Part shown: positions 30,408-62,941 of the stretch, in pieces
Layout: each line of letters opens with the position of its first letter
Numbering within the stretch: position 1 is the stretch's first letter
NCBI GenBank assembly: GCA_003602605.1
Contig: QQRW01000018.1
Location: 286-64,285, forward strand
Direction: 5' to 3'
DNA: 64,000 nucleotides
From: Candidatus Poseidoniales archaeon
GTDB taxonomy: Archaea > Thermoplasmatota > Poseidoniia > Poseidoniales > Poseidoniaceae
Made by a program: the position numbers and the translations under genes
The notes under the pieces: generated by a model
Databases searched by the model: none
Seen by the model: the letters and a program-made list of their open reading frames with translations, nothing else
Told to the model about the DNA's origin: nothing

Positions 30408-31109
30408 TTGGGTCGACGTTATGAAGAAAAAGTGGATGTAGAAGAGCTTGCTCGACTCGAAAATCCAGAAGACGCGTCAGGCGGTAAAATCCGTGTCAAG
30501 ATGCCGAACCGTAAAATCAACGAAATGTTTGCATTTGCTGAACAGATCCTAGGTGGTCGACGTGTTACTGTTCTCTGTGAAGACGGTGAAACCCGTATGG
30601 CTCGAATCCCCGGTAAGATGCGCCGCCGTCAGTGGGTCCGTGATGGGGACCTCATCATTGTCTGGCCTTGGGATTTCCAAGACTCCAAAGCAGATGTAAA
30701 GCACCGTTACACCAAAACTCAAGCAATGTACCTTTCACGCAAAGGCGTTCTCCCGAAGGAGTTGGATTTCTTTGGTATGAATACATCAAACGATGATGAC
30801 GATGATGAATTCTCTGACACCTTCGGTACGATGGATGAGCCTGAAGAACAAGAAACCGATGATTTGTTTGGTTCTGATGACGACGATGATGACGATGATT
30901 TGTTTGGTTCTGATGATGACGATGACGATGATTTGTTCGGCTCAGACGACGATGACGATGATGACGATGATTTGTTTGGTTCCGATGATACAGAGGAAGA
31001 AGCACCGGCTGAAGAAGTTCCACACATCCCTGTTGAAGAATATCCCGCAGAAGACGATGACGACGATGACGATGACGATGACGAGGACCTCGAAGCCTTG
31101 TTTGGTTGA
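30408..31109 (+). CDS. eif1a: translation initiation factor aIF-1A with extended poly-Asp repeat C-terminal tail
   Basis: N-terminal about 110 aa match the eIF-1A OB-fold ('KIRVKMPNRKINEMFAFAEQILGGRRVTVLCEDGETRMARIPGKMRRRQWVRDGDLIIV'). This is followed by four or more 'DDLFGSDDDDDDD' repeats and a terminal 'DLEALFG'. Confidence 0.8.
   Translation: MGRRYEEKVDVEELARLENPEDASGGKIRVKMPNRKINEMFAFAEQILGGRRVTVLCEDGETRMARIPGKMRRRQWVRDGDLIIVWPWDFQDSKADVKHRYTKTQAMYLSRKGVLPKELDFFGMNTSNDDDDDEFSDTFGTMDEPEEQETDDLFGSDDDDDDDDLFGSDDDDDDDLFGSDDDDDDDDDLFGSDDTEEEAPAEEVPHIPVEEYPAEDDDDDDDDDDEDLEALFG
30857..30990 (+). repeat. in-frame tandem repeat (about 39-bp unit, about 3.5 copies) encoding DDLFGSDDDDDDD
   Basis: 'gatgatttgtttggttctgatgatgacgatgacgatgat' recurs with minor variation at 30860, 30899, 30935 and 30968. 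Confidence 0.8.
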
Positions 31110-34721: not shown

Positions 34722-34914
34722 GATGCTGTGACGGGTGCGGTTATCCTTGAATGCTCCCCTTGATATGGGTCGTTTCTCGTCAAATGAGTTCTGTCTTTTT
34801 CACATCAGTCATGTATTACCTCTCACGGAGCAGACGAATCTTTGCCTTGAAGTGGTTTTTTTTCATGGCTCGCAGAGATGGGTTCAAGTGCTCCGCAGGT
34901 TGTCGAATACCTAC

Positions 34915-37716
34915 ATGGCAAGCGCGTGGAAGCCGATATTGGCAATTCTTCTCCTCTGTATAGCATCGGTTCCGATGCCTGTATCAGCGGAGCAAAGCGG
35001 TTCGATTCAGGCAAGTCCGAGTACGGTTGCCCTACTTCCAGCCAATCCTGTTGCAGGTGGTTCGGTCACGATTAACCTGCAATTGTACAACAGCGGCAAC
35101 TATGCGACAGATGTCGAATACTCATTTTATCGTGATTCGAGAGGTCCTGACCAACTTCTCAAAGAAGCCACGATTGATATCGATACAGAAACCTCTGCGC
35201 AGGTTTCAGCAGTGTGGAACGGACTCACTGAAGGTGATCACGAGGTTCATATCACTTTCGAACATCCTCGAAACTCTGGTAACGAAGCGCATTTCTGGGT
35301 TGACTTTACCGTTACCGGGCTTCCGAACCTCAAGGTAACGCAAACTGAACTTACACCAGCGACTGGAATTTTCTCAGGAGACACTGTTATGCTTTCTTCA
35401 CTTGTCCGAAATGTAGGCAGTGAACCTGCAGTCTCAAGTATCCTTCACATCGACTTACCCGGTTCGAGCGACTTGGATCTCACAACTCCGCCTCTTGACG
35501 CAGGGGCAACAGAATGGGTCAACACAACTTTTACCGCTCCTGAAAGTGGCTCACACATACTCTATGTTACGCCGGATTACCAAGATGCAGTTCAGGAGTC
35601 ATCAGAATTCAACAAAGTGATAGAAGTTCCACTCGTTGTTGATACTCGGATGGATGTTTTCCACATTGGAGAACTAACAGTAGACATTGCCGAAGGGGCT
35701 CTTCAAGGCCCGTGGGTGGTTTCAGGAAAACTCGGCCGAACCAATGGTACCGGTTTATCGGATGTACCAATGTGGCTCCAAATTTCAAGTCTAACCGGTC
35801 AATTGGTTACAACTGCGCCATTTAGCGTGCCGTTGAGTGGAACAGGATATGCTGAATCGACGTGGAGCCATACCCTTACCGCTGCTGAACTCGATGGACT
35901 ACCTGCCGGTATGCATACCATCACTGCTAAGATTGACCCGTTCTCGAATGCTGCTTTTACACAAGAGTCAACAGATAACGACGAGGTTTCAAGCACCCTC
36001 TCTAAGTTTGAGGTGCCTGATGTATTCGTTGATGCGAACGCTATCGCCTCATCCCCATCGGTAAACTCCGGAGATTCGGTTGAATGGCGTGTAAGTATGA
36101 TCAATACTGGCGATATTCGTGTTTCTGGTCGATTACACTACACATGGGAAGGGACAACTGAAACCTCTCCGATTATCTATCTCGATTCCGGTCAAGATTA
36201 CACCTGGGTCGTTGAACTCACCACCGCTATTGGTGCACACCAGGCTGACTTCGAGGCTCAGTGGGTCGCTTCTTCAAACAGTTGGGACTCAAACCCCTTG
36301 AACAGCGTTGCAACCGGTACGGTCTCCGTAGAAGCAAATTTACGTCTTAGCTGGGCTCTCTCAACCCTCGAAGTGACCGATTCAGAAGGTTCGGCATTCA
36401 CACTCCCAATGACTCAAGGAAACGATTATTCCCTTACCATCGATTTGACCAGTACTGCTACTGGTTCACTAACTTATGATTGTGTAGATGGCAACGATGA
36501 ACTCATTAGCACAGTTACTGCTGAAGTTGTGAACCTCGGAGACAAGGTCACGCTTACATGTGATTTTACCGCAGTAGCCCCGTCTACTGTCGTGCGATTG
36601 GTGCCCTCGGATTCAACGATTTCAAACACCTTTACGCGGACATTCTCTACCGTACTAAGCGGAGATGAAATTGATGATATGAATTCCAATTCTGAACTTG
36701 GGACGTTCACGCTGATTGGGTTCGTTGCCGTTATTCTCATAGCTATCCTGGCAATTTCAGTGTTTTTGACCCGTGAATCAGAGGAAGAAGTTGAACGTGA
36801 CATTTTCGAGTACTGCCCAGCATGCGATGGTGAACTCGAAGGTGATGAAGACCGATGCCCTCATTGTTCATTCAATCTCAAGAAGGCGAGAAAGCAATTC
36901 CATGATTGCAATGAATGTGGCGAATCGATTCCAGATTTACTCGACAATTGTGTCTATTGCGGTGCTGAACAAGACGTCTCCTCCTTCTTTGAGAAGCGAG
37001 AACGTAAGGAACGCACGGTCAAAGAAACGGTTGCTTTGCCTGATGAAATTGACGAAGACGCTATCGTTACAGGAACCGAGAACTTTGCTCAAGCTGTGAA
37101 AGAGTTTGGATTTGATGAAGATGAACTTGAGTTTGAATGGGATGAGAACATCGCAACTGCTGAAGCGGAAGTCGAAGCCGCTTATGATCGTCGAAACGCT
37201 GACGAAATTCTGCGTGAGGACATGACTGAAGAAGAATTGGAAGCGTACGAAAACACAGTTACAACCACGCTCAAGAGCATGAAGGATCTCAGTGAGAGTT
37301 CAAACGACATCGACGCTATTTTGGCTTCGAAGGGCGAGATTATTGCACACAAGGACGATGGAAAGGATCTTTCAGCAAGCGATGCAGACATTCGTGGTCG
37401 ACTGTATGAGATTACTGGGGAAGACGGAATCATGCCGGGCGACAAAGTGAACGTCGGCATGCAACTGTCAGATTCAGCATTTGCAGGAAACGAAGTAACG
37501 GAAACCACCTCTGATTTCACTGTAATTGACGACGAAAAACCGCTTTCAAAGATCGAAGATTTGGCTCCTAAGGCTGAGAAACCTGCCCGCAGGAGAGGTG
37601 CTCGTCGCAAAGCTGCTGAAGAAGTAAAGCCCGATGTTGCAGAGTGTGGTGCGTGCGGTGCTGATTTGCCGGTTGAAGCTACTGAATGTGGAACCTGTGG
37701 CGCTAAGTTTGAGTGA
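34915..37716 (+). CDS. CARDB-repeat surface protein with TM and cytoplasmic domain bearing three zinc ribbons
   Basis: Signal peptide (MASAWKPILAILLLCIASVPMPVSA). Repeated 'NxGxxxA' CARDB-like modules. TM (FTLIGFVAVILIAILAISVFL). Cytoplasmic 'CPACDGELEGDEDRCPHC', 'CNECGESIPDLLDNCVYC', an acidic helical region, and terminal 'CGACGADLPVEATECGTCGAKFE'. T9 tract 55 bp upstream. Confidence 0.7.
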   Translation: MASAWKPILAILLLCIASVPMPVSAEQSGSIQASPSTVALLPANPVAGGSVTINLQLYNSGNYATDVEYSFYRDSRGPDQLLKEATIDIDTETSAQVSAVWNGLTEGDHEVHITFEHPRNSGNEAHFWVDFTVTGLPNLKVTQTELTPATGIFSGDTVMLSSLVRNVGSEPAVSSILHIDLPGSSDLDLTTPPLDAGATEWVNTTFTAPESGSHILYVTPDYQDAVQESSEFNKVIEVPLVVDTRMDVFHIGELTVDIAEGALQGPWVVSGKLGRTNGTGLSDVPMWLQISSLTGQLVTTAPFSVPLSGTGYAESTWSHTLTAAELDGLPAGMHTITAKIDPFSNAAFTQESTDNDEVSSTLSKFEVPDVFVDANAIASSPSVNSGDSVEWRVSMINTGDIRVSGRLHYTWEGTTETSPIIYLDSGQDYTWVVELTTAIGAHQADFEAQWVASSNSWDSNPLNSVATGTVSVEANLRLSWALSTLEVTDSEGSAFTLPMTQGNDYSLTIDLTSTATGSLTYDCVDGNDELISTVTAEVVNLGDKVTLTCDFTAVAPSTVVRLVPSDSTISNTFTRTFSTVLSGDEIDDMNSNSELGTFTLIGFVAVILIAILAISVFLTRESEEEVERDIFEYCPACDGELEGDEDRCPHCSFNLKKARKQFHDCNECGESIPDLLDNCVYCGAEQDVSSFFEKRERKERTVKETVALPDEIDEDAIVTGTENFAQAVKEFGFDEDELEFEWDENIATAEAEVEAAYDRRNADEILREDMTEEELEAYENTVTTTLKSMKDLSESSNDIDAILASKGEIIAHKDDGKDLSASDADIRGRLYEITGEDGIMPGDKVNVGMQLSDSAFAGNEVTETTSDFTVIDDEKPLSKIEDLAPKAEKPARRRGARRKAAEEVKPDVAECGACGADLPVEATECGTCGAKFE

Positions 37717-37863
37717 TGTCCGTCGGCTTTCATAGGGTTCGTCATCGCAGGTGCTCGGCAACCACAAGCGTCATTCGGACAGATCGTGCTGCATCCATTA
37801 GGCTTCAAACCCTCGTATCATTCCGACATTGAATTGATATGTGGGGCGCTCTTGGCATCTACG

Positions 37864-38421
37864 ATGAAGAGCAGTTGGAGTGTACCATTTTTACTGGTCA
37901 TGACACTCTTTCTCAGTTCATTCTCTGGATGTTTAGGGCTTCTCCAATCGAGAGAGTGGTTGGAAGACCGGAGAGATCCCCCGGTTTTGGAAACAAAAAC
38001 AGACAGTTACAAAGAAATCAAAGTATTCAACAATCTGTTTGAATGGGAGGCATATACCAACACGACCTTCATTCCAATCGATGACTCGGTCAGCGAAATT
38101 TCAATTTACAGGAAAGTGCAGATAACCGGAACAGAAGACATCGGATGTTTCGAGAGTTTTACCCGCTATGTGCGTGCTGAGTTGTATACTCCTTCGAATA
38201 ATCTGGTTTGGTCCATTGATGTGTGTCAAGACCTCGGAGCATCGACAGAACCGCTTACTATGGAAGAAGGATCGACTACCTTTGAGAGTGGAAATTGGCG
38301 ATTGGAGATTGATGCACGCGGTGGTGGATTGCAAAATACTGCCTTGCAAGACAATTTCCAAGTCGACGTCAACATCGAGAGAACCTGTTTGACGTATCCA
38401 CTGGAAGATGTTTGTGAATGA
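37864..38421 (+). CDS. small secreted lipoprotein-like protein
   Basis: Signal peptide ending in lipobox-like 'LSSFSGC'; about 185 aa mature; no other motif. Confidence 0.4.
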   Translation: MKSSWSVPFLLVMTLFLSSFSGCLGLLQSREWLEDRRDPPVLETKTDSYKEIKVFNNLFEWEAYTNTTFIPIDDSVSEISIYRKVQITGTEDIGCFESFTRYVRAELYTPSNNLVWSIDVCQDLGASTEPLTMEEGSTTFESGNWRLEIDARGGGLQNTALQDNFQVDVNIERTCLTYPLEDVCE

Positions 38422-38422
38422 T

Positions 38423-39619
38423 TTAGACAAGTGAATCGTTGCAAGCGTATCGCCGAGAACAATTCCTACACTTGCCGGGGCGATCGTGATTACGCGCTGC
38501 ACCACCTTCGACCATGAGCCTCTGAATTTCAAATACGGCATCGAAGAGTTCGTTTTTTGCACTTTCAGTCCAAGGTATCTGGTGCAGGTTTTCACTTCCA
38601 TACCTTAACACGCCATAGGGGGAACTTTTGTTTGTACTTTTTTCGACTAAATGCAGGTATGCAAGGAGCTGCATTCGGTGGCTTGGGTGTGGATTTTTTG
38701 GCACCTTACCCGTTTTCTGCTCGACCGGAATAAACTCGCCATCCACGATGACAATTTGGTCGGGTCTGCCTCGCAGTCCCAGTTTTTCATCGCTGAGAAG
38801 GTTTGAGTCGACATCGTTATCGGAATAGGCTATTTCATCATCCTTTTCCAAGTCAATATCCTTCTTCATCGATTGAAGTTCGTTATCAGATAGCAGTACG
38901 CGCTGGAGTTGCCACGATGCTGCTAAAGTCCAAGTCATTGCGGTAATGAAGAGGATAAAAGTGGCTTGTTCACGGTTATCTGCAGCTGCTAAGGCAATTG
39001 CGTGAAGACCTAAAACGATCGAGCCGAACAGTAAACTTGCCTCAACTCTGCCTGCCTCAAACCAGCCTCCAATGAATCCTTTCGGCTCCCAGAATTGATT
39101 CAAATCATCGCGCTCTTCCAAGAACTTTGTTTTCTGTCGAGGTAGCGTTTCATTGAGTCCAATCCAAGAGCGCCATGGGACCGAAATTGCGATCAGTCCG
39201 GCAATCAATGTCGTTACGCTCCACAAAGCGAGATACCTCGCCATGTAGAGTGGCGTGACTACGTCATCGATGTAATTGAACGCTACAGCGTCAATCGATA
39301 ATGCAATGATGACGGAGAACCACCAAGTCCAGATGGTGACGGAACGACGCATTTGAGTTTGAACCTCTTTGAAATCTTTCATTTTGGAGTGAATTTCTGC
39401 GTGTCTTTTGATTCCGGCGGTGATGGCTTCACCTTGCCCAGAATTTCCTTCCCGGGACAGCGACCATGAAAGCGGGCAATACTCGTGGCGTTCTAAATCG
39501 CTGGCGCTTACTGGTAAAGCAACTCCCTGAGAGTCACGCCAAACACCGTCTTCGGATTGAGTTGCACTCAGTCCACCGATTAGTCCAGTGCTCTCTGTCA
39601 TTTGCAACCCCCCTCCCAT
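38423..39619 (-). CDS. Cas4/DUF83-like PD-(D/E)xK Fe-S nuclease interrupted by a 4-TM membrane insertion
   Basis: N-terminal 'HEYCPLSW' (Cas4 N-terminal Cys helix). Four hydrophobic helices (residues about 95-240). Then 'IVIVDGEFIPVEQKTGK' (D..ExK), 'QLLAY' (QhxxY) and C-terminal 'C-x2-C-x5-C' (CRNCSRRYAC). This is the canonical Cas4 motif order. Confidence 0.55.
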   Translation of the reverse strand: MGGGLQMTESTGLIGGLSATQSEDGVWRDSQGVALPVSASDLERHEYCPLSWSLSREGNSGQGEAITAGIKRHAEIHSKMKDFKEVQTQMRRSVTIWTWWFSVIIALSIDAVAFNYIDDVVTPLYMARYLALWSVTTLIAGLIAISVPWRSWIGLNETLPRQKTKFLEERDDLNQFWEPKGFIGGWFEAGRVEASLLFGSIVLGLHAIALAAADNREQATFILFITAMTWTLAASWQLQRVLLSDNELQSMKKDIDLEKDDEIAYSDNDVDSNLLSDEKLGLRGRPDQIVIVDGEFIPVEQKTGKVPKNPHPSHRMQLLAYLHLVEKSTNKSSPYGVLRYGSENLHQIPWTESAKNELFDAVFEIQRLMVEGGAARNHDRPGKCRNCSRRYACNDSLV

Positions 39620-39753: not shown

Positions 39754-40368
39754 ATGACCATGTCCGAAGAATCGAACTTACTCTTGCCCTTCGAATCGTA
39801 TGAAGAGAACGCAGTCAACATTGGTACTCAACAGAAGAGTGCTGACATGGCTCGATTCATCGAACGTGTTCGTGAAGACGGATTGTACCTCCTTGATGTT
39901 AATATGACCGACTCTCGTATTCGCTCCATCGCACAATTCCTCAACAAGTACGATGCAGGAAGAATCATGGTCGTTTCTGCTCGTCAATACGGCCAACGCC
40001 CTGCTCGTCTTTTCTCAGAAGCAATTGGGGCTAACGCTGCAGTAGGTCGTTTCATTCCTGGTTCCCTTACCAACCCAGTTCTTCGTTCATATGTTGAGCC
40101 GGATGTCCTGTTCGTCACTGACCCAGCTGCAGACCAACAAGCACTTCGAGAAGCAGTCAACTCCGGATTGCCAATTGTCGGCATTGTTGATGCGAACAAC
40201 AACCTCCGAAACGTCGATGTTGCTCTACCAGCAAACAACAAGGGACGCCGTTCTCTTGCACTTGTTTACTGGCTCTTGGCTCGTGAAGTCCTCAAGGTAC
40301 GTGGTGAAACAACCGACGAAGATTGGGCAGCTTCCCAAGATTTGGAAGACTGGCAATCCACCTTCTGA
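39754..40368 (+). CDS. rps2: 30S ribosomal protein uS2
   Basis: Archaeal S2 motifs ('YLLDVNMTDSRIRSIAQFL', 'RIMVVSARQY', 'LPIVGIVDANNNLRNVDVALPANNKGRRSLALVYWLLAREV'). Confidence 0.85.
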   Translation: MTMSEESNLLLPFESYEENAVNIGTQQKSADMARFIERVREDGLYLLDVNMTDSRIRSIAQFLNKYDAGRIMVVSARQYGQRPARLFSEAIGANAAVGRFIPGSLTNPVLRSYVEPDVLFVTDPAADQQALREAVNSGLPIVGIVDANNNLRNVDVALPANNKGRRSLALVYWLLAREVLKVRGETTDEDWAASQDLEDWQSTF

Positions 40369-46591: not shown

Positions 46592-46861
46592 ATCGCCGAC
46601 GTTTTTTTTTCTGTGCAGGGGGACCCATCCTTGAGGTGCCTATTGGATGGGTGTTGGATGGGTTACAATTTTTCAATGCCTCTTCATGGAATGAATATGG
46701 ATGGTAAACAGTTTTTTTCAATCTCACAACGACTTTCCAACCTTGCTGGCCAAGTCCATTTAATTTAGATTGAAAATCGGAATCAACTATCGATAGCAGT
46801 GAGGCTTTCAGCCTTGCCCGTCGGGTCAACCTTCTTATGGGACGAGGTGTGGGAAGTCGCC

Positions 46862-49800
46862 ATGAAGGTACAGACCCTCCTACTGACTTTGATGCTGTTG
46901 CTCTCCGGATGCCTCGGCATGGCCGATGAAGACATTGAAATCGACAAGAACGATATGTTCCCAGATGATGATGCAGCGTACTACGATACCGATGGTGATG
47001 GATTACCAGACCAACTTGATGGTGAATCAACGTCCACACCCCCGCTCGTCGCAGACACGGACGACGATAACGATGGTTTCCTAGACACGATGGAAACCAC
47101 TTGTGGCACAGATCCACTCAACGCAACCTCCTTCCCGGAGGATCTTGATGGGGACTTCGAATGTGACGAGTACGATTTTGATATTGATGGTGACACCGTA
47201 ATCAACGACGCTGATGCCTTCCCTCGAGATGCCAGCGCATCTACCGACACTGACGGCGATGGCATGCCTGACACACTCACCGGGGAATCTACCCTCATTG
47301 AAGATCTCGACGACGATAACGATGGCTGGTCAGACCTCGATGAAACAGCGTGTGGTAGCAACTCATTGGTTGCAAGCCTCATGCCAGTTGATGCAAACGG
47401 AGACGGCATCTGTGATGCAGTTTCGACTGACGACGATGCTGACACCTACTCCGATGACGAAGAGACACAGTGTGGATCAGACCCACTCGATGCAGCAAGC
47501 ATTCCTGCTGACCTTGACAACGACACAATTTGTGACGCATTGGACGATGACATGGACGGCGACGGCACACCCAATGCCCAAGACATGTACCCACGTGACC
47601 CAAGCAAGCACGAAGACGTCCCAGGTTGCACCGACACCGCCTCATTCAACTTTGATGCCGATGCAAACCTCGATGATGGAACGTGCGTTGACGCAGAAGA
47701 TGTCTTCGGCATGATGCTGAATTTCGTGGAGAACGAAACATGGCACAGTTTCGATTCCTCTAGCGAGGACTTTGACGGTGATGGAGCTGTTGATTTCATC
47801 ATGAGTATGCTCATGATTTCCGCACCGGCACAAGATTCAGTGCTCATGAATCAAGTGATTTCTAATCCTGATGGTGAAGAGATGCTCAACATCACCTACC
47901 TATACTCGAGTGGAACGATTCAACTGGACCAATATGTTGTTGTGGAAGAAGATGAGGACAGTGGCGAACAACTCACCATGAACGATCAAGTCCTCATCCA
48001 CCACCAATACATGGCTAATCCTTTCATAGAGGCTCCAGAATGGATGCATTGCGAGCAACTTCCTGACAACACATGGCTTTGTTCCGATTCGGATTATTTT
48101 ACTGAAGGCAACCCCGACAGCGCCACAGAAACGCTCCACCAGTACACATGCGCCGATGGAACAACCATCATGAGCAGCGAGGTCAATGACGGAACTGAAG
48201 ACTGCGCTGATGGTTCTGACGAACCACAATTCACAGAAACCTACTCTTACACCTGCTTGAGCGGCGAAACAATCGGCCTCATGCACGTTAACGACGGAGA
48301 CGAAGACTGTGCTGATGGGTCAGACGAGGCCAAAATATTCCAATGCGCTGATGGTTCCTATGTGTACTTTGCAGTAGCAAACAACGGTGGCGCTGACTGC
48401 AACGATGATTCGGACGAACCTGCATATAATGTTACTGAACTCTCAACCTATGATTGCGCGGACGGCAGTCAAATTTACCTCTCACAGGTCAACGACGGCG
48501 TTGAAGATTGCCTGGATGCAGATGATGAACCCACTTACGAAGATACTGAACAGACTTACTTTGATTGTGACGACGGAATCTCATACATTTACCTCTCACA
48601 AGTCAACGATGGTACCGAAGACTGTGCAGATGGTGAAGACGAAGCAACCTTTGACGAAGATGGTGAAGAAACATCTACCTTCGAATGTGAATACACTGGA
48701 GATATCATACCATTGTCATATGTCAACGATGGTGAGGAAGATTGCTATTACGGTGACGACGAGCCATTTGTTGGGGAAGAAGAGACTTCCGTCTTCGATT
48801 GCGCTGATGGTTCAGATACCATTGATCTCTCAGAAGTCAATGACGAATACCAAGACTGTGAGGACGGTTCAGACGAACCAGTCTATGATATGACAGAGAC
48901 CTCGATGTTCGACTGTGAGGATGGCAGTCAAATCTTCTTCTCACTCGCAAATGATGGTGTTGAAGATTGTGCAAACGGTGAGGATGAACCGTCTGAAGAA
49001 TACGTTGAATACACAAGCTTTGATTGCGCTAATGGTGACACTATTCCATTATCCCTCGTCAACGATGGTACTGAAGACTGCCAAAGCGGCGATGATGAAC
49101 CATCCTACGATCCAATCACAGGTTCAGAACTCACCACTTATCAATGTCCATATTCGGGAGAGTCAATCGCTCTTTCCTTGGTGAACGATGGAAGTTATGA
49201 TTGTGGAGACTATGAAGATGAACCTTATGGTGATATTGAGGAGACCTCTTTCTTCACTTGCGACAATGGCGACGAAATCGTGATGAGCTGGCTCAACGAT
49301 AATTACAATGACTGCGAAGGTGGTGAAGACGAAGCACAGTTCGACATGGGAGAAGAAATCAGTGTCTTTACGTGCGCTGACGGATCTGAAGTGTCATTCT
49401 CATTGGTGAACGATAACAACAACGACTGCGCTGACGGTGAAGATGAATACTACACCTACGAGTGTGCAGATGGTAGCGACACTATTCCGCTTCTCGCAGT
49501 TAACTTTGGATACTATTTCTGTCAGGATGATTCCGATGAATCCGATGCTGAAGAATCGAGCGAATTCACTTGCTTTGATGGAGAAACTATTCCGCTGAGT
49601 TACTACTCTGATGGTGAAGCAGACTGCTCAGATCGCTCTGATGAGATCTCTTTCGACGACGATTATACCGATTGTGTTTGGGACGCTGAGGCTGGATTCT
49701 GGGTCTGTGCCGAGACAATGCCTGAAGGCACTTGGTCAGGTGAAATGCAAGAGGATGGCGGCATGATTGTCACCATCACCGAAATCGACCCCGATTCTTT

Positions 49801-50887
49801 GGTAGAAGAGAACATGAGAGTGACAATTTCCCCTGATATGTCAGTTGTATCAATCGAAATCGAAGAAACGGTTGAGGGAGATGTTGTCATCATGTCCTAT
49901 GTTGCCGGAACCGGCGGCCATGACCTCTTGATTGACACGACCCTCGAAGAAGCCGCTCCACCGTTTGTTGTTGCCTTTGATGGGGAACCAATTCAACAGG
50001 CTACATTTGAGTGCAATGATGGAACAATCATCGATTTTGCTCTCCTCAACGATGGTGCTTATGATTGCGCTGATGAAGAAGATGAACCTGATTTTGTGGA
50101 AGAAGAAATAACTTTCTGGATGTGCGCTGATGGCGAATCTGAGATTCTCCTCTCTGCTGTTTCGAATGGAAACCCCGACTGTGATGATGGGTCTGATGAA
50201 ATTCTTACTTCAACCTTCGATTGTGATGACGGAACCTCAATCACCCTCGATAAAGTGAGTGATGAAAACATGGATTGCGTCGGCGGCGAGGATGAGCCTC
50301 AATTTGAACAGGGAGAGGACAACAATATCTTCTACTGTTATGATGGCTCAGACTCAGTACCTATGGAATGGGTCAATGACGACTGGGATGATTGTGCTGA
50401 CGGATCTGACGAAGGCCTTGGCGATGGTCACGGTTATGGCCAATACATGGTCGGAGCAATCGGTATGGCGGCTGACGATATTGTTGAATGGAACGGAGGT
50501 TCAATTACCGATGCAACAAGTGCAGACGGCATGGATCTTGTCCTATCATTGTGTGATTCATTCAAGACAATCGACGGCGAAAATGGCGAATACACCGTCG
50601 GTGAAGGCTGTGGTGACGATGTTGAGCGTTGGTCGTTTGCTGACATTGCAGCAGGCGATGTCGACGGAATTGAGTTTTATGACGCTGATGAAAGCGGTAC
50701 ACTCACCGATGGAGACATGTTCAGTATCACGGACCTTGATACCATGGAGGACTGGAACGCAGTTCGATTGGCAAAGGGTACGACCTACGCTGATGAGAAT
50801 CCTGAAGTCGTACTTCCTGGATTCACAGCAGCACTTGGTATCATCTCGATGCTCGGTGCAGCGCTGCTTGTTCGCAAGAACGAGTGA
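46862..50887 (+). CDS. extremely acidic cell-surface Ca2+-binding-repeat protein (TSP3-like N-terminal repeats plus about 25 degenerate LDL-receptor class A-like 'C-x-DGS-x-I-x-LS-x-VNDG-x-EDC-x-DGSDE' repeats) with PGF-CTERM-like anchor
   Basis: Lipobox-like signal (MKVQTLLLTLMLLLSGCLG). 'DTDGDGLPDQLD', 'DTDDDNDGFLD' TSP3-type motifs. Periodic repeat of about 30-33 aa with the 2-Cys 'DCxDGSDE' core. C-terminal 'VLPGFTAALGIISMLGAALLVRKNE'. Confidence 0.7.
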   Translation: MKVQTLLLTLMLLLSGCLGMADEDIEIDKNDMFPDDDAAYYDTDGDGLPDQLDGESTSTPPLVADTDDDNDGFLDTMETTCGTDPLNATSFPEDLDGDFECDEYDFDIDGDTVINDADAFPRDASASTDTDGDGMPDTLTGESTLIEDLDDDNDGWSDLDETACGSNSLVASLMPVDANGDGICDAVSTDDDADTYSDDEETQCGSDPLDAASIPADLDNDTICDALDDDMDGDGTPNAQDMYPRDPSKHEDVPGCTDTASFNFDADANLDDGTCVDAEDVFGMMLNFVENETWHSFDSSSEDFDGDGAVDFIMSMLMISAPAQDSVLMNQVISNPDGEEMLNITYLYSSGTIQLDQYVVVEEDEDSGEQLTMNDQVLIHHQYMANPFIEAPEWMHCEQLPDNTWLCSDSDYFTEGNPDSATETLHQYTCADGTTIMSSEVNDGTEDCADGSDEPQFTETYSYTCLSGETIGLMHVNDGDEDCADGSDEAKIFQCADGSYVYFAVANNGGADCNDDSDEPAYNVTELSTYDCADGSQIYLSQVNDGVEDCLDADDEPTYEDTEQTYFDCDDGISYIYLSQVNDGTEDCADGEDEATFDEDGEETSTFECEYTGDIIPLSYVNDGEEDCYYGDDEPFVGEEETSVFDCADGSDTIDLSEVNDEYQDCEDGSDEPVYDMTETSMFDCEDGSQIFFSLANDGVEDCANGEDEPSEEYVEYTSFDCANGDTIPLSLVNDGTEDCQSGDDEPSYDPITGSELTTYQCPYSGESIALSLVNDGSYDCGDYEDEPYGDIEETSFFTCDNGDEIVMSWLNDNYNDCEGGEDEAQFDMGEEISVFTCADGSEVSFSLVNDNNNDCADGEDEYYTYECADGSDTIPLLAVNFGYYFCQDDSDESDAEESSEFTCFDGETIPLSYYSDGEADCSDRSDEISFDDDYTDCVWDAEAGFWVCAETMPEGTWSGEMQEDGGMIVTITEIDPDSLVEENMRVTISPDMSVVSIEIEETVEGDVVIMSYVAGTGGHDLLIDTTLEEAAPPFVVAFDGEPIQQATFECNDGTIIDFALLNDGAYDCADEEDEPDFVEEEITFWMCADGESEILLSAVSNGNPDCDDGSDEILTSTFDCDDGTSITLDKVSDENMDCVGGEDEPQFEQGEDNNIFYCYDGSDSVPMEWVNDDWDDCADGSDEGLGDGHGYGQYMVGAIGMAADDIVEWNGGSITDATSADGMDLVLSLCDSFKTIDGENGEYTVGEGCGDDVERWSFADIAAGDVDGIEFYDADESGTLTDGDMFSITDLDTMEDWNAVRLAKGTTYADENPEVVLPGFTAALGIISMLGAALLVRKNE

Positions 50888-53385: not shown

Positions 53386-54030
53386 ATGATAAATCGGATT
53401 CGGCAAATGCTATTTAGAATGCGTCATAAAAACAGCCCTTTCCCGGGGTCTTCTGAATATTGGGACCGCCGTTACCGTAGTGGAGGTACTTCGGGGGATG
53501 GTTCGTACGGCGGTTTGGCGGATTTCAAGGCCGAAATAATCAACGTATTTGTCGAGGAAAACGGTATTGATACTGTAGTCGAATTAGGTTGTGGTGATGG
53601 GAACCAACTTGGATTGATGGATGTCCCACAGTATACTGGTTATGATATTTCTAAAAAAGCTGTAGAGATGTGTGCAAAAAAGTACTCGGCTGATTCTTCA
53701 AAGAAATTTATTCACTATTTACCCAACCAATACGATGGTGAGGCGAAAGCGCAACTTTCACTCTCATTGGATATCATTTACCACTTAGTCGAGGATGTAG
53801 TATTTGAAACGTATATGCACCATTTATTCCAGTTAGCCAGTGATTGGGTCATTGTCTATTCCAGTAACTCGGAGGATCCGGAAGCAGAAGGGATTGAACA
53901 CTGTAGGAATCGAAAGTTCGTCGATTGGGTTGGTGCAAATATTTCAGGCTGGGAACTTGTTAACAAAATCAAAAACCGCTACCCTGAACGTTCAAGATGT
54001 GATTTCTATATTTACAAAAAGTCGGCATGA
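53386..54030 (+). CDS. class I SAM-dependent methyltransferase
   Basis: 'VVELGCGDGNQLGLM' (motif I GxGxG), 'YTGYDIS' (motif II). Confidence 0.6.
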   Translation: MINRIRQMLFRMRHKNSPFPGSSEYWDRRYRSGGTSGDGSYGGLADFKAEIINVFVEENGIDTVVELGCGDGNQLGLMDVPQYTGYDISKKAVEMCAKKYSADSSKKFIHYLPNQYDGEAKAQLSLSLDIIYHLVEDVVFETYMHHLFQLASDWVIVYSSNSEDPEAEGIEHCRNRKFVDWVGANISGWELVNKIKNRYPERSRCDFYIYKKSA

Positions 54031-54053
54031 TTTAACCGGTATCCAGGCGAAGG
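53951..54053 (+). repeat. direct repeat copy 1 (about 100 bp, 3 mismatches versus copy 2), spanning the methyltransferase 3' end and stop
   Basis: 'aacaaaatcaaaaaccgctaccctgaacgttcaagatgtgatttctatatttacaaaaagtcggcatgatttaaccggtatccaggcgaagg' recurs at 55248. Confidence 0.85.
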
Positions 54054-54201
54054 CCGCTCGGCTTTTTGGTGTTCTTGCTCATCCACATTCTAAATTGCAA
54101 AACACCAAATCTGGTGTGTGTGACCAAAGTGTTATTGCCAAAATGCTGGTTATCGAAATCACACCAAAAATAAACCTTTCATTAAAAATTGAAAATGAAA
54201 T

Positions 54202-55164
54202 CTATTTGTCATTAATTAAAAGTTCATATTCCATGCCATTTTTATTATTCGGCATATCTAACTTATGAGGTAAATTGTAGTCTGTTGAAACATTTGAGTG
54301 TTTGGAAAAAGTTACCTCCAATACAAGGGGCAAATCATCATCTTCGCGTAATGGACGGAAATTATTAGCATGAACATGAACTAAATTTAAACTCAATTCA
54401 TTTATGAACTTTTCAATTTTGTTAAGATGTATATCAACATCATGAAACTCAAGCACTAAGCCAGTAATTCTCTCTTCATTAGCGACAATGTCATGCAAGA
54501 TCCGATATTCAGATCCTTCTATATCAATTTTCAAAAAAATATTGTTACTTTCAGTTTGATTTAAAACATCCATAAAAGTGCAGTACTGCTCACTTTTAAT
54601 ATTCGAGCCTACAAATTTTTGGAGATGATTAACATTTGGTTGAGTTTTAATATCCATGCTTACAAATTTTGTGATATGATTAACATTTGATTGAGAGAAG
54701 AATTTTCTATAATTTAAGAGCACATTTAGCGAATTCAGAAAGCGTTTAAATCTATAAATCCTTAATGCAGATCCCAAGAGGCGTCTGAAGAAAATTCTTT
54801 CACTAACACTCGCATCATAAGCCTCTATGGATACTTTTTTTTGATTTAAGAAATCCTCTTCAAAACTCCAATCATCACTAATACCAAATCCTAAAAGTAA
54901 ATCTGTTTGTTCAATGTCTGATTTTGAAACGAGATATCCTCCATCATAATCCCTTCCAATTCGGACTAAATCCGTTGATTGCTTTATTGAAAAGAAATGT
55001 GGTAGTCGTGCTTTCATAATGTTATGGACAGGAGGAGGGGCAATAAGTGTTTTTGAATGGTTGATAATATCTGTTGCTAAGGGCAGACGCTGGGAAAAAG
55101 TCCCATGTTCCTTCTTTAGTAAGGGGTTATCCGAAACCCCTTTGCATTTTATATCCCGATACAT
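54202..55164 (-). CDS. FkbM-family methyltransferase
   Basis: 'FLKIDIEGSEYRILHDI' (FkbM 'DIEGxE' signature); low GC; lies between the two direct repeats. Confidence 0.6.
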   Translation of the reverse strand: MYRDIKCKGVSDNPLLKKEHGTFSQRLPLATDIINHSKTLIAPPPVHNIMKARLPHFFSIKQSTDLVRIGRDYDGGYLVSKSDIEQTDLLLGFGISDDWSFEEDFLNQKKVSIEAYDASVSERIFFRRLLGSALRIYRFKRFLNSLNVLLNYRKFFSQSNVNHITKFVSMDIKTQPNVNHLQKFVGSNIKSEQYCTFMDVLNQTESNNIFLKIDIEGSEYRILHDIVANEERITGLVLEFHDVDIHLNKIEKFINELSLNLVHVHANNFRPLREDDDLPLVLEVTFSKHSNVSTDYNLPHKLDMPNNKNGMEYELLINDK

Positions 55165-55247
55165 GGGGATTCAGTGGGTCGATACAGACGCTCCCCTCTG
55201 CTTGACCCATCTTGAAGGCGCAGGGTTATGATGGAGGCTATCTCGTT

Positions 55248-55342
55248 TAACAAAATCAAAAACCGCTACCCTGAACGTTCAAGATCTGATTTCTATATTT
55301 ACAAAAAGTCGGCATCATTTAACCGGCATCCAGGCGAAGGTC
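55248..55342 (+). repeat. direct repeat copy 2
   Basis: Near-identical to 53951-54053; encodes a pseudo-ORF fragment 'NKIKNRYPERSRSDFYIYKKSA'. Confidence 0.85.
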
Positions 55343-55353
55343 CAACCTACCGT

Positions 55354-56250
55354 TTACCCTTGCTCAAGAAGACGTTCTTGTTCTGCGAGCAGAGCATAGG
55401 TGCTGGGAAGGAAGGTCTGGCGAAGTTGCACATCGTTTTGTTGTTCAGAAACATTGGTCTTATGCAGGGCTTGTTCTTGGCTCCCAGGTATATTGTCAAA
55501 TTCAATGCTTTCCTCTGCTACTAAACCAATACCAACGCCGTGTTCAATGGATTGAAATGTGAGCCAAATGTCATCGGCTCGGGGACATGTTTCCCTAAAT
55601 CCATCTCCTGCCTTCCGCATTATCTCAAGGAAATTCGGGGGAAACAATACTCCTGAGACACACGTGGCAAAATTCAGATGACTCGGTCCTTTAATTCCGG
55701 GTGGCCACGAATTATAGGGGGCGAGCCCTTTCTTGTCATCACTGAGAACTATTCTGTGTGCTCGATGTGCCATGACTGAAGTTGGTTCACGTTGTGCTGC
55801 TTCAAGGATGCGTTCCAGCCACCAATTTGGATAGAATATATCGTCGTCGGCAACAATATGTGGGCGAGAAAAATCTGGAGCGTTTTGAATCCACCACTGT
55901 ATCTTCGTATGCGGACCGAGATTTTCAGCCAGATGGATTTCCAAACCTCGTTTCATCAGCCGTTTCAAGGCCTTAGTTGGATGCAATACATCTTTCTCTA
56001 CATCTAAATAAAGCATGAATCTTGAGGGGAGAACCGTCCCCTTAGCAATTGTCTCGATGGCGATGTGGGCAGTTTTCAAGCGTTGCCCGTAGGTTGTCAT
56101 TGAGACAGTGGGGCCTTCTGGATGAAGGATGGAGGAAGAAGTGAAACGGTTTCTCAATCCGAGACGAAATGCTCTCAACGGCAGCAGAATCCTCTTTAGA
56201 TGATTTCGGAGGTAGGATTTCACATTGGGAACTCTCATGCACTTTACCAA
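55354..56250 (-). CDS. putative glycosyltransferase (DxD-type)
   Basis: 'PHIVADDDIFYPNWW' DxD-like motif; no closer assignment possible by eye. Confidence 0.4.
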   Translation of the reverse strand: MVKCMRVPNVKSYLRNHLKRILLPLRAFRLGLRNRFTSSSILHPEGPTVSMTTYGQRLKTAHIAIETIAKGTVLPSRFMLYLDVEKDVLHPTKALKRLMKRGLEIHLAENLGPHTKIQWWIQNAPDFSRPHIVADDDIFYPNWWLERILEAAQREPTSVMAHRAHRIVLSDDKKGLAPYNSWPPGIKGPSHLNFATCVSGVLFPPNFLEIMRKAGDGFRETCPRADDIWLTFQSIEHGVGIGLVAEESIEFDNIPGSQEQALHKTNVSEQQNDVQLRQTFLPSTYALLAEQERLLEQG

Positions 56251-59927: not shown

Positions 59928-60577
59928 GCATTCACCTCCATTGACGAGCTGCTTACCTTCGGGAATTCGAAACTCCCGTATGTGAGGCTTCCAATCGATT
60001 GCAACGGCGCACGCTTTTCTCTCAATTGCTGCAGAATCCATTGAGCACCGAACGTCCCAGCGATGGAAAATCCAAATTCAAGATTTCCTGCATCGAGCGC
60101 TCCCTCCACTTGGCAACTCATCGGTTCGTGGTCGGGTGTCATTTGAGCCACTAATTCTGGGTTGGAATCTGAAGTGAATACCATCCAACCATCACCAGAG
60201 CATCGTAAATCAATCCAAGGCACATCAAGGGAATGAACGAGGCGACGTGGCTCAGGTCTGTCGACACAGACCACAATCAAATCATATCCCTTAAGTTGTT
60301 CAAACTGCCTCAAGTTTTCGGCAACTGAGCGTACTTGGATGCCATTGGCGTTGGACCATTTGCCTGCGAGAGCATCCACTTTGAATGCCCCAATATCGGA
60401 AGCAGTGTAGTTTTGATGACCGAGGTTTGAGGCTTCAACAGTATCACCATCCATTAGGGTAATTTGGGCACTGAGTTGTATTCGATCAAGTGCTGGAACG
60501 AGTAGGTCGACAACGGTTGTTCCGATGCCTCCGGCACCAACTATCAGCAGCGATTTTGGCGATGATTTTTCATCCAT
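59924..60577 (-). CDS. minimal E1-like (ThiF/MoeB/HesA superfamily) adenylyltransferase
   Basis: 'LLIVGAGGIGTTVVDLLV' nucleotide-binding loop, 'MDGDTVEASNLGHQ' (DxDxxExSNLxRQ-like), 'IVVCVDRPEPRR'. Only 217 aa, with no C-terminal CxxC or rhodanese. Confidence 0.7.
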   Translation of the reverse strand: MDEKSSPKSLLIVGAGGIGTTVVDLLVPALDRIQLSAQITLMDGDTVEASNLGHQNYTASDIGAFKVDALAGKWSNANGIQVRSVAENLRQFEQLKGYDLIVVCVDRPEPRRLVHSLDVPWIDLRCSGDGWMVFTSDSNPELVAQMTPDHEPMSCQVEGALDAGNLEFGFSIAGTFGAQWILQQLREKRAPLQSIGSLTYGSFEFPKVSSSSMEVNA

Positions 60578-60808
60578 GAGGACTTAAGAAATCGACCTTA
60601 CATAAACTTCGAGGAAGGTGATTCACCAACGGTTTGGATTGACCCTGCTGTCATGAATGCTATGGTCGTTGGAATACTCTGCGTTTTCTTTATGCCTTCA
60701 ACTGAATAAGAGAGAACAAAACTAAATAGCAAAAACAAGGAGAGAAATATATGGCAAGTGCTTCAACAAGAGTGTGGGCACACAATCAAGTTCAACTGAG
60801 GTTTTGAC

Positions 60809-61648
60809 ATGCTTCGAGCGTTTTATTGGCGCCTTAATCTTGGCCTTAAGAAAATAAAATCAAAGCGTCTTAGGAAGAAACTTGGTAGCAATATCAAAGC
60901 CATCATTACGAACAGTGAGAACGGTATATTCGCAGTTGACCCTGAGGATCTTGAAGTAGGCCAAAAGTTACGTTCAGGTGGATTTGGTATCGGCGAAGTG
61001 GAACGCCTAAAGAAATTCATCAACAATAAATCCAAGGTTTTGATTGTTGGAACGCATATTGGTTCGTTAGCAATACCACTTTCAGAACATTGTAAGGAAA
61101 TAACAGCGATTGAAGCAAATCCGAACACCTTTGAATTACTCGAGATAAATCTCCAACTTAACAACAGTAAAAACATAACACCACACAATATTTTTGCCAA
61201 TGATTCTCACGAAAAAGTAGAGTTTCTACTCAATACAGTAAACTCAGGTGGAAGTAAGAGGAAACCAAAAAAGAGCAGTTTTCTGTACGATTATGATGAC
61301 CCCGAAATTATTGAATTAGAATCACACAGACTTGATGATTATTTACCTCAACATGATTATGATCTCGTTCTATTGGACATCGAGGGTTCTGAGTACTTTG
61401 CAATGAAAGGTATGAAAGAAATTCTATCCAATTGTAACACATTAGTTGTTGAATTCCTACCGCATCACCTCAAGAACGTCGCAGATATCGATGTCGAAAC
61501 ATTCCTCTCTGTTTTACCAGATCATTTTACCAAGTTTAAATTACCAGACAACAAACAAGAACACAACATTTCAGATGTCAAGACAGTACTGCAGGACATG
61601 TATGACGCTAACATCGGCGAGGATGGAATCATTTTCACTTCAAATTAG
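60809..61648 (+). CDS. FkbM-family methyltransferase
   Basis: 'LVLLDIEGSEYFAMKGMKEIL' FkbM signature; AT-rich. Confidence 0.6.
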   Translation: MLRAFYWRLNLGLKKIKSKRLRKKLGSNIKAIITNSENGIFAVDPEDLEVGQKLRSGGFGIGEVERLKKFINNKSKVLIVGTHIGSLAIPLSEHCKEITAIEANPNTFELLEINLQLNNSKNITPHNIFANDSHEKVEFLLNTVNSGGSKRKPKKSSFLYDYDDPEIIELESHRLDDYLPQHDYDLVLLDIEGSEYFAMKGMKEILSNCNTLVVEFLPHHLKNVADIDVETFLSVLPDHFTKFKLPDNKQEHNISDVKTVLQDMYDANIGEDGIIFTSN

Positions 61649-61705
61649 AACTTGGTTCTACTGTAACGGCTCAACATTATAGCAACCATCCCTGTCACAC
61701 GACAC

Positions 61706-62941
61706 ATGGCTAACCATCAAAGAAAGCGCCTTTTACTCGTGAAAGGCTCTTTTGAGCACTTCGGTGGTGGTGAAAGAGATTTGATTAACAATCTCGAAGC
61801 TTGGTCTGAATATTTCGAATTGAGTGTCGCAACATTACATCCTAACCAGGAACTCGTAGAGAAATTAAATCAATTGGATATACCACTGTTTTCTCCAGTA
61901 AGCAATTGGTCTTACTCGCGAGGAATTTTTTCTGAAATTTTCGCAAAATCATCAAAAAACGCGTCAAGAAAATGGTACTCTATGCTTTCTTTAACAAAAC
62001 AAGGAGTTGGTTTGAGTACATCATTTTCCAACATTGACGCCGTGAACATAACTACTGGGATGGCTTCTTTAGAAATTCTCCCATACATACCTGAGGACAT
62101 CCCTGTTCACACATACATGCACGAACCAAACAGGGGGCTGCACAGCAACGACTTACACTTCGATGTTGACGGAACACCCAAACAAAACCTCAAGTTAACA
62201 AATCTCCTTTTGTCAAAACAAAGAAAAATAGACGAAAAATTAGTAACTCTTGCATCCAAGAGAGGGAAGATCAGTGGTAATTCGAAAAATACGTGTGATC
62301 GAATCAAGCAAGTTTACGATGTCGAATCGGACTTTCTTTATCCCAGCATAAATACAGATCTTTGGCCGATTAAACCAACCAAAGATGAAGACTGGGAGTC
62401 TGTAAAAAAGGAATTTGACCTTGTCAAAAACAAGTATGTAATTACCATTGGACATGCTATTTTTGCAAAAGGACTGTGGGAGACGATCACAAAACTTAGC
62501 AATTCAAATTTGCAAGTCGTCCAAATCGGCGGTGGGGTCAATGAAAAACACGAGGAGCACGCCAGAAAAATGAACGTAGAATTAAAAGCCCTGCCAAGAG
62601 TCTCTCAAGCGACCATTCGAGCATTGATGAGAAATGCTAAGGCATTGGTTAGCAATGCTATCAACGAACCATTCGGCTTAACTCCACCAGAAGCATATTT
62701 CGTCGATTGCCCAGTAATAGTATCGAATCAAGGAGGATTTACAGAAACCGTTGTTGATGGAAAAACAGGACGGTTAATGGAGGACGGAGATGATTGGATT
62801 TTGGCAATCGATCAAGGGCATAAAAATCGAAAGGAGTGGTCGAAGGCTGGGCGAGAACACATCAAAAAAATCGATTTAACACCTGAAACTCAAGCAAGGA
62901 AAGTATTCGAATCCTTTTCTCAGTATTTTGAAGAGGAATAA
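61706..62941 (+). CDS. glycosyltransferase, GT4-like
   Basis: C-terminal 'SNAINEPFGLTPPEAYFVDCPVIVSNQGGFTETVVDGKTGRL' GT4 motif. Confidence 0.7.
   Translation: MANHQRKRLLLVKGSFEHFGGGERDLINNLEAWSEYFELSVATLHPNQELVEKLNQLDIPLFSPVSNWSYSRGIFSEIFAKSSKNASRKWYSMLSLTKQGVGLSTSFSNIDAVNITTGMASLEILPYIPEDIPVHTYMHEPNRGLHSNDLHFDVDGTPKQNLKLTNLLLSKQRKIDEKLVTLASKRGKISGNSKNTCDRIKQVYDVESDFLYPSINTDLWPIKPTKDEDWESVKKEFDLVKNKYVITIGHAIFAKGLWETITKLSNSNLQVVQIGGGVNEKHEEHARKMNVELKALPRVSQATIRALMRNAKALVSNAINEPFGLTPPEAYFVDCPVIVSNQGGFTETVVDGKTGRLMEDGDDWILAIDQGHKNRKEWSKAGREHIKKIDLTPETQARKVFESFSQYFEEE

Follow-up and report, generated by a model that had tools for sequence, protein, structure and literature searches.

A Cas4-family nuclease domain split by predicted membrane hairpins in marine group II archaea and their relatives

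The 64,000-nucleotide stretch of contig QQRW01000018.1 analysed here (hereafter the window) is core chromosome of a marine group II (MGII) archaeon (Candidatus Poseidoniaceae), and its best-matching genome loci all belong to Poseidoniales. At 38423..39619 on the minus strand it carries an intact open reading frame (ORF) of 398 aa plus stop, whose product is 100% identical to database protein P0001; an alternative start at M7 (39601), which is the start used by many orthologues, gives 392 aa. We consider the product to be probably an integral-membrane, CRISPR-independent (“solo”) Cas4-family 4Fe-4S PD-(D/E)xK nuclease acting on DNA ends, in which two transmembrane (TM) hairpins split one domain, a reading that draws on sequence comparison and on structural models. 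A preliminary description of the locus had noticed four hydrophobic helices inserted between the N-terminal Cys motif and the nuclease core. The insert is indeed there: 167 residues, containing four TM helices, separate the two Cas4 pieces between H73 and D287, and they follow the GxxxH helix.

A Cas4 domain in two pieces

The proposed homology to Cas4 and PD-(D/E)xK nucleases holds up in both profile and structure searches. Over residues 271-394, in its C-terminal part, the protein matches PF01930 with 36.6 bits (cutoff 22.7) and PF12705 with 41.7 bits (cutoff 22), the PADLOC Cas4 models reach at most 70.8 bits, and all 114 aligned homologues match both Pfam families. A full-protein phmmer search of PDB sequences returned chance matches only (e.g., thioredoxin and G-protein-coupled receptors), and with the insert deleted nothing beyond weak matches to AdnA and Cas4 appeared. 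The N-terminal fragment resembles the N-terminal motif of the AdnA nuclease. A helicase domain was found neither in the protein nor among the inspected neighbours.

Conservation was assessed in three homologue alignments (n = 18, 114 and 10; identity down to 24%) that include members with 2, 4 and 8 TM helices. The N-terminal Cas4-domain fragment (residues 36-88; 39356..39514, minus strand) consists of the SASDLERxxYC48PLSW helix and the G69xxxH73 motif, and its invariant or near-invariant positions are S38, A39, E43, Y47, C48, W52, G69 and H73. Cys48 (codon at 39476..39478, minus strand), which is invariant in the alignments, is predicted to supply the 4Fe-4S cluster with its first ligand. 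The C-terminal fragment (residues 271-398; 38426..38809, minus strand) contains the beta-sheet core and the Cys cluster. Here the invariant or near-invariant positions are G284, P286, D287, P298, E300, K302, G304, P307, P310, S313 and H314, followed by Q317, Y321, G336, Y340, R376, H378, K383, C384, C387, R389 and C393.

The predicted catalytic motif D287...E300-x-K302 (DQIVIVDGEFIPVEQK; 38714..38761, minus strand) is recognisable in the three alignments: D287 and K302 are invariant in each of them, E300 is invariant in two and conserved to at least 90% in the third. The QxxxY motif, Q317-L-L-A-Y321 (38657..38671, minus strand), has an invariant Gln and a Tyr that is either invariant or at least 90% conserved. 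The last motif, C384-x2-C387-x5-C393 (38441..38470, minus strand), is predicted to supply the three C-terminal Fe-S ligands and lies just downstream of the invariant R376-N-H378. The Cas4 hallmarks listed in the preliminary description, namely the Cys helix, ExK, QxxxY and C-x2-C-x5-C, are thus conserved and stand in the order given there. Its choice of the Asp in “IVIVDG” has to be corrected, as this residue, D293, falls in a variable alignment column; judging from conservation, the catalytic Asp is D287 of “GRPD”.

C48, C384, C387 and C393 are the only cysteines in the protein, and all four are invariant across the 2-, 4- and 8-TM relatives. We infer that they bind an Fe-S cluster and that the domain binds a divalent metal. 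In Sulfolobus Cas4, as summarised in PMC13621843, the His of GxxxH (His62 of PDB 4IC1) binds the catalytic metal. Since the insert is placed after the GxxxH helix, the N-terminal fragment would hold the metal-binding His besides the Cys.

In silico removal of residues 89-255 leaves 201 aa that align with the Cas4g/Cas1g model (positions 3-189) collinearly and in a single piece; the TIGR00372 score is then 68.7 bits, over the cutoff of 65. The AlphaFold2 model of the native protein has a mean predicted local distance difference test score (pLDDT) of 84.4 and a predicted template modelling score (pTM) of 0.72. Block means of pLDDT reach 95-97 within residues 21-50, and residues 1-13 stay below 50. 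The best solved-structure matches in Foldseek are Cas4 (8d3l, 8d3q, 7mi4), Dna2, MGME1, ACE1, AdnAB and Exo5, with E-values of 1e-4 to 1e-6 for solved Cas4 chains. Specifically, chain 8d3l_I, the Cas4 of a type I-C Cas4-Cas1-Cas2 complex, matches the native model with an E-value of 9.6e-5, and 7mi4, a Geobacter Cas4/Cas1 fusion, superimposes with a root-mean-square deviation of 2.4 Å over 122 columns.

The minimal relative with two TM helices, P0479 (275 aa; AlphaFold2 pLDDT 82.0, pTM 0.73), is instructive, as its model aligns end to end with the type I-C Cas4 chain (TM-score 0.65-0.66 per target). This end-to-end alignment means that, in the models, the two halves reassemble across the insert to give a canonical Cas4 fold. 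In these models the N-terminal piece, with C48 and H73, and the C-terminal one, with D287, E300, K302, Q317/Y321 and C384/C387/C393, form one nuclease domain. By its motifs and its predicted fold, the protein is a member of the Cas4 family.

The part that precedes the domain, an N-terminal extension of residues 1-35 (39515..39619, minus strand), is specific to MGII and little conserved elsewhere: its mean identity is 39% inside MGII and 8% between clades.

The membrane module

TM hairpin 1 (residues 89-150; 39170..39355, minus strand) comprises TM1 (~96-114) and TM2 (~129-147), and TM hairpin 2 (residues 189-245; 38885..39055, minus strand), which is homologous to it, comprises TM3 (~194-212) and TM4 (~220-238). 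These hydrophobic segments, of 19-23 residues each, are placed by AlphaFold2 in helices H63-116, H123-146, H191-211 and H216-255. In the secondary structure of the model TM1 is unbroken from the GxxxH helix (H63-116) and TM4 runs on into the helical stalk (H216-255) that links it to the nuclease core (residues 246-270; 38810..38884, minus strand), with low confidence at linker residues 266-270. The loop between the hairpins, predicted to be cytoplasmic (residues 151-188; 39056..39169, minus strand), is rich in K/R, with 7 of these residues in 46 aa. It is longer in the MGII clade and absent from a short 4-TM clade; the model gives it short helices at 149-153 and 159-169 and low confidence at 180-184.

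Lys plus Arg (K+R) counts in the successive loops of the protein are 5, 1, 7, 1 and 3, i.e., 15 inside versus 2 outside. The same positive-inside bias, with both termini in the cytoplasm, was found in all 114 aligned homologues. Relatives with eight TM helices have a sharper alternation (e.g., 7, 0, 12, 0, 7, 0, 9, 1, 4), amounting to 30-39 K+R inside versus 1-4 outside. This bias places both nuclease fragments, and hence the four cysteines, in the cytoplasm. The helix number is even throughout the relatives (2, 4 or 8), as it has to be if both domain halves are to meet on the same membrane side; the need to rejoin them appears to enforce the even number. Segment length, charge distribution in the protein and its 114 homologues, and even helix numbers all favour TM helices over buried core helices, as the preliminary description had supposed.

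The two hairpins resemble each other in sequence. Hairpin 1 (86-152) aligned with hairpin 2 (186-250) at an hhalign probability of 97.2% (E = 4.4e-11, score 53.2), and the reversed and eight column-shuffled controls scored at most 15.4. A hairpin hidden Markov model (HMM), built from 4-TM proteins only, matched residues 87-152 of the protein with 77.9 bits. Applied to six 8-TM proteins, the same HMM returned exactly four copies without overlap in every one of them (E 3e-4 to 3e-18 per copy). In the 2-TM proteins P0479 and P0190 it found one significant copy, with marginal matches only in two other 2-TM proteins. Judging from these comparisons, the insert is two tandem copies of a two-helix hairpin of ~60 aa, and the family includes forms with 1, 2 or 4 copies of it.

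Within the module, W230 is near-invariant in the homologue alignments. No Pfam family covers the module in the protein or in the 114 homologues scanned. A MARVEL match (16-17.6 bits against a cutoff of 32.8) and scattered matches in at most 5 of the 114 homologues were dismissed as compositional.

Distribution and chromosomal context

Searches at E ≤ 1e-3 returned 1108 homologues from a 90%-clustered collection and 932 from a 50%-clustered library. All family members that carry an organism name belong to Thermoplasmatota: Poseidoniales/Poseidoniia, Thermoplasmata, Ca. Natronoplasma and Methanomassiliicoccales. A relative is encoded in at least 586 species-representative genomes. An origin by gene fusion or assembly artefact was rejected, as the architecture recurs in more than 1000 database proteins and in these genomes. 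A viral or mobile origin was rejected as well, on the absence of relatives from IMG/VR and GenBank phages.

The best 80 of the at least 586 genomes, all Poseidoniales, provide the synteny counts for this order. In 79 of the 80 loci the gene adjoins the divergent gene of ribosomal protein uS2 (39754..40368, plus strand; PF00318), a synteny marker and not a functional part. The same CARDB/zinc-ribbon protein is encoded alongside in 74 loci and the same 211-aa protein in 72. In the window the neighbours include uS2, dihydrouridine synthase, helix-turn-helix regulators, the nuo operon, RIO kinase and eIF-1A.

The lack of CRISPR context, already remarked on in the preliminary description, was confirmed for the window and for nine further clade contexts. 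No CRISPR-like tandem array was found in the 64-kb window. Among the families listed in a scan of 45 window ORFs (25 of 48), there was no Cas family besides the Cas4 of the protein itself, except for weak Csa3 matches (E = 1.1e-7) to three ORFs, which we assume to be the neighbouring helix-turn-helix regulators. The nine other contexts inspected contained no cas1, cas2 or CRISPR array, and no cas gene or recognisable defence gene was seen at the inspected loci of other clades. According to a recent survey, CRISPR-Cas prevalence is low in Thermoplasmatota (PMC12988326). On this evidence the gene is a vertically inherited, CRISPR-independent chromosomal gene.

Another neighbour in the window is a gene for a 211-aa protein with a lipoprotein-like signal (…LSSFSGC) and no Pfam match (37786-38421, plus strand). 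It stands tail to tail with the Cas4 gene across a 1-nt gap. It was considered as a phylum-wide partner and rejected, as its similarity to the small proteins encoded downstream in other clades is confined to the signal peptide (tblastn E 0.048, hhalign probability 36%). The syntenic ORF at 34735-37716 (plus strand) codes for a large CARDB-domain surface protein (PF07705, PF12773); its translation apparently ends with one membrane segment followed by a tail with several CxxC zinc-ribbon motifs.

Outside Poseidoniales the surroundings differ from clade to clade, but here too they consist of housekeeping genes. At three Thermoplasmata loci a PF14811 (“TPD”) gene lies directly upstream on the same strand, at a distance of 24-53 nt (L081 7200-7976, L082 4513-5289, L083 7177-7947), and GlmS and GlmU are encoded downstream. 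Among the loci inspected this TPD gene is confined to one Thermoplasmata clade, and it was not found in the window. L15e lies beside the gene, or PRC-barrel, RHH and FtsZ genes lie near it, in L084 (6386-11668), L086 (1-983) and L089 (6991-7608). The neighbours are L15e, PRC-barrel, RHH and FtsZ in L084, and L15e in L089; L086 and L087 have FtsZ, Trm1, TruD and RNA polymerase subunit L. The RHH protein of L084 recurs in L088. These L15e/FtsZ surroundings may be ancestral synteny or a hint of a connection with cell division.

Three diverged Thermoplasmata lineages share another neighbour: a protein of 100-120 aa that combines two TM helices with a coiled coil at its C terminus, the latter carrying the motif FTPFEEEMLKMR, and that is encoded at L085 8659-9018, L088 5960-6298 and L090 5993-6301 (all minus strand). 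Its gene is convergent to the TM-Cas4 gene and overlaps the stop codon of the latter, and the three proteins match one another with blastp E-values of 1e-22 to 1e-25. No counterpart was found in the MGII window. As each occurs in clade subsets only, the TPD gene, the small 2-TM protein, L15e and FtsZ were all rejected as universal partners.

Several features elsewhere in the window deserve mention. In the 1362-aa ORF at 46799-50887 (plus strand), numerous LDL-receptor class A repeats (PF00057, 185 bits) occur together with a PRKCSH-like region; the LDL-receptor class A domain is known mostly from eukaryotes and is unusual in an archaeon. The eIF-1A homologue (30408-31109, plus strand) has an Asp-rich C-terminal tail encoded by a 36-nt tandem repeat present in 3.7 copies (30857-30988). 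G+C content falls to 0.39 at 54001-56000 and to 0.41 at 60001-62000, against ~0.48 elsewhere, and these regions could be a variable or horizontally acquired island. The ORFs 54202-55164 and 55354-56250 have no Pfam match, and the former includes a 51-nt tandem repeat (54594-54695). Glycosyltransferase and FkbM methyltransferase matches also occur among the window ORFs.

Relation to known nucleases and possible function

Known solo-Cas4 proteins (COG1468/PF01930/TIGR00372; Hudaiberdiev et al. 2017, PMC5704561; M. mazei, PMC12501428) have the same N-terminal Cys and C-x2-C-x5-C, GxxxH, D...ExK and QxxxY motifs. They are also encoded outside cas loci. However, they are soluble proteins of ~170-220 aa, whereas the domain described here is broken by a 167-aa four-helix insert and its gene belongs to the syntenic core of an entire order. 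By location, outside CRISPR-cas loci and mobile elements, the gene belongs with the solo-Cas4 genes; it lacks two textbook Cas4 features, a contiguous soluble domain of ~170-220 aa and the association with cas1-cas2. Cas4 of the CRISPR adaptation machinery (8d3l, 8d3q, 7mi4) shares the catalytic and cluster residues and is the best structural match, but the protein in question has no Cas1, Cas2 or array partner and is predicted to be embedded in the membrane. Its family also has what may be additional invariant motifs (P307, P310, S313-H314 and R376-N-H378), as seen in alignments of the family itself.

Dna2, AddB, AdnAB, MGME1, Exo5 and ACE1 belong to the same fold class and all act on DNA ends. 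All of them are soluble enzymes, which in the case of Dna2, AddB and AdnAB have a helicase as fusion or partner and in the case of ACE1 an Argonaute, whereas our protein has a membrane module instead. RmuC (COG1322) and COG4741 are PD-(D/E)xK nucleases that are also predicted to be held at the cytoplasmic face of the membrane, and protection from DNA entering the cell has been suggested, speculatively, for COG4741 (Kosinski et al. 2005, PMC1189080). They belong to McrC-like/YraN-like subfamilies without Fe-S, and have one N-terminal TM helix in contrast to the internal four-helix array.

The closest sequence relatives outside Thermoplasmatota are single-pass Cas4-like proteins of Anaerolineaceae and Woesearchaeota (P0229-P0270, ~170-180 aa, automatically named Cas4). 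They consist of one N-terminal membrane helix, a K/R cluster and then the C-terminal two-thirds of Cas4, covering TIGR00372 positions ~55-180 with at most 85 bits. Unlike the split protein, they lack the N-terminal Cys/GxxxH fragment, possess three Cys only and have no internal hairpins. No paper on them was found in the literature searched, and they look like a second, apparently undescribed, membrane-anchored Cas4-like family. When a neighbour-joining tree of TM forms against presumed soluble Cas4 was built, its outgroup proved to consist of fragments or single-pass membrane forms. As for the split architecture, transmembrane segments go unmentioned in the Cas4 phylogenomics study (PMC5704561), and the literature searched, whose coverage was incomplete, yielded no description of a transmembrane Cas4. 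This agrees with the earlier view that the architecture is undescribed, its sequences being public as “Cas4” or “Dna2/Cas4 domain-containing protein”.

In the reading that we prefer, the Cas4 domain would be interrupted in the loop after the GxxxH helix by two tandem hairpins, with both termini cytoplasmic, and the reunited nuclease domain would be suspended from the membrane by two helices that prolong TM1 and TM4. Judged by the Cas4 enzymes already characterised, it should be a nuclease that depends on a metal and acts on the ends of single-stranded DNA; such enzymes are reported to be Fe-S-containing 5'-3' single-stranded DNA exonucleases (PMC3466216; Lemak 2013). A domain suspended in this way from a two-helix stalk can be expected to find its substrates in DNA ends at the inner membrane face. 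Tentatively, and again by analogy, we propose that linear DNA is trimmed or destroyed on entering the cell by a RecBCD-like gatekeeper or salvage enzyme, which we regard as a possible role rather than a probable one. The gatekeeper would be constitutive, vertically inherited and chromosomal, and would not be a mobile defence gene. It is distinctly unlikely, in our estimation, that the hairpin array is more than an anchor and forms the membrane part of a device for the surveillance or uptake of entering DNA, either by lining or docking onto a DNA conduit that feeds the Cas4 site or by passing a membrane perturbation along the continuous TM1-GxxxH helix to gate the nuclease.

Several observations weigh against the preferred reading, some against the membrane-bound Cas4 nuclease and others against the gatekeeper role. 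The native protein scores 64.9 bits with TIGR00372, marginally under the cutoff of 65, and TM1 and TM4 are only marginally hydrophobic (2.6-2.7 on a Hessa-type scale). No neighbour gene is shared across clades, so no specific pathway is indicated. A core syntenic gene fits a housekeeping function at least as well as a gatekeeper. Finally, mean pairwise identity within MGII is 77.6% for the TM3-TM4 hairpin versus 76.4% for the nuclease core, which is unusual for a passive anchor and suggests that the membrane part is more than that.

The housekeeping function in question could be the resection or clearing of chromosomal ends at the membrane during repair, replication termination or division (e.g., of septum-trapped DNA). 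It would suit the near-universal, single-locus, vertical pattern in Poseidoniales, the L15e, PRC-barrel, RHH and FtsZ neighbours in L084 (with FtsZ also in L086 and L15e in L089), and the fact that the nearest structural relatives Dna2, MGME1, Exo5 and AdnAB are repair or replication nucleases. Yet the neighbourhoods vary by clade and may be mere ancestral synteny, and 2 to 8 membrane helices of a repair nuclease would be left unexplained; we hold this role to be unlikely. The conservation of TM3-TM4 speaks for a signal-gated effector, whose hairpin array would register something happening at the membrane (the entry of a virus, stress on the envelope or a partner protein in the membrane) and would switch the nuclease on via the unbroken TM1-His73 helix, in innate or abortive-infection defence. 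Helix H63-116 does join GxxxH to TM1 and H216-255 joins TM4 to the core, the small 2-TM coiled-coil protein abuts the 3' end of the gene at three Thermoplasmata loci, and membrane-sensing defence complexes are known, Kiwa being an example. This alternative is nevertheless unlikely, given a core syntenic gene that sits amid housekeeping genes and not in defence islands, hairpin copy numbers of 1, 2 and 4, which are easier to reconcile with a spacer or an anchor than with a site for one ligand, few conserved polar residues in the TM segments and the absence of the small 2-TM neighbour from the MGII window.

The remaining two explanations are much weaker. An ordinary CRISPR-adaptation Cas4, working in trans with cas1-cas2 located elsewhere in the genome, would account for the automatic annotation as “CRISPR-associated protein Cas4”, for the Cas4 models being the best PADLOC and NCBIfam matches and for the top fold matches being Cas4 of Cas4-Cas1-Cas2 complexes. 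It is very unlikely in view of the absence of cas1, cas2 and arrays from the window and the nine other clade contexts, and of the retention of the gene by at least 586 species genomes in a phylum with low CRISPR-Cas prevalence; a membrane tether is also hard to square with assembly on the Cas1-Cas2 integrase. A nuclease that is secreted or faces outward and feeds the cell by breaking down environmental DNA could be imagined, since MGII live heterotrophically and have many hydrolases at the surface, a subtilase and PKD/CARDB surface proteins are encoded in the window, and bacteria have membrane-bound uptake nucleases such as EndA and NucA. But in every homologue tested the K+R distribution assigns both halves of the domain to the cytoplasm, a signal or Tat motif is absent, and an Fe-S domain with four cysteines in two segments would require the export of both segments, which leaves this explanation with hardly any credibility.

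Cas4 is familiar as a soluble protein that assists in capturing CRISPR spacers. An archaeal phylum that keeps a Cas4 without a CRISPR link and predicted to thread through the membrane suggests that the family has a task at the membrane that is independent of CRISPR, in a family in which the role of many solo-Cas4 genes is still open (PMC5704561; PMC12501428). The design of the protein is unusual too, with a two-helix hairpin lodged within an enzyme domain, where its expansion has given versions with one, two or four copies. In practical terms, the automatic “CRISPR-associated” label is misleading when CRISPR components are counted in metagenomes.

Poseidoniales rank with the most abundant, as yet uncultured microbes of the surface ocean (PMC10160649). 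Few of their lineage-specific functions are understood, and this gene is a conserved chromosomal gene there. The architecture opens questions of localisation, topology and the effects of stalk mutants to experiment. Should the DNA-entry device prove true, the CRISPR-poor Thermoplasmatota would own an unrecognised, constitutive, membrane-coupled nuclease barrier, and the protein would show what solo Cas4 does outside CRISPR.

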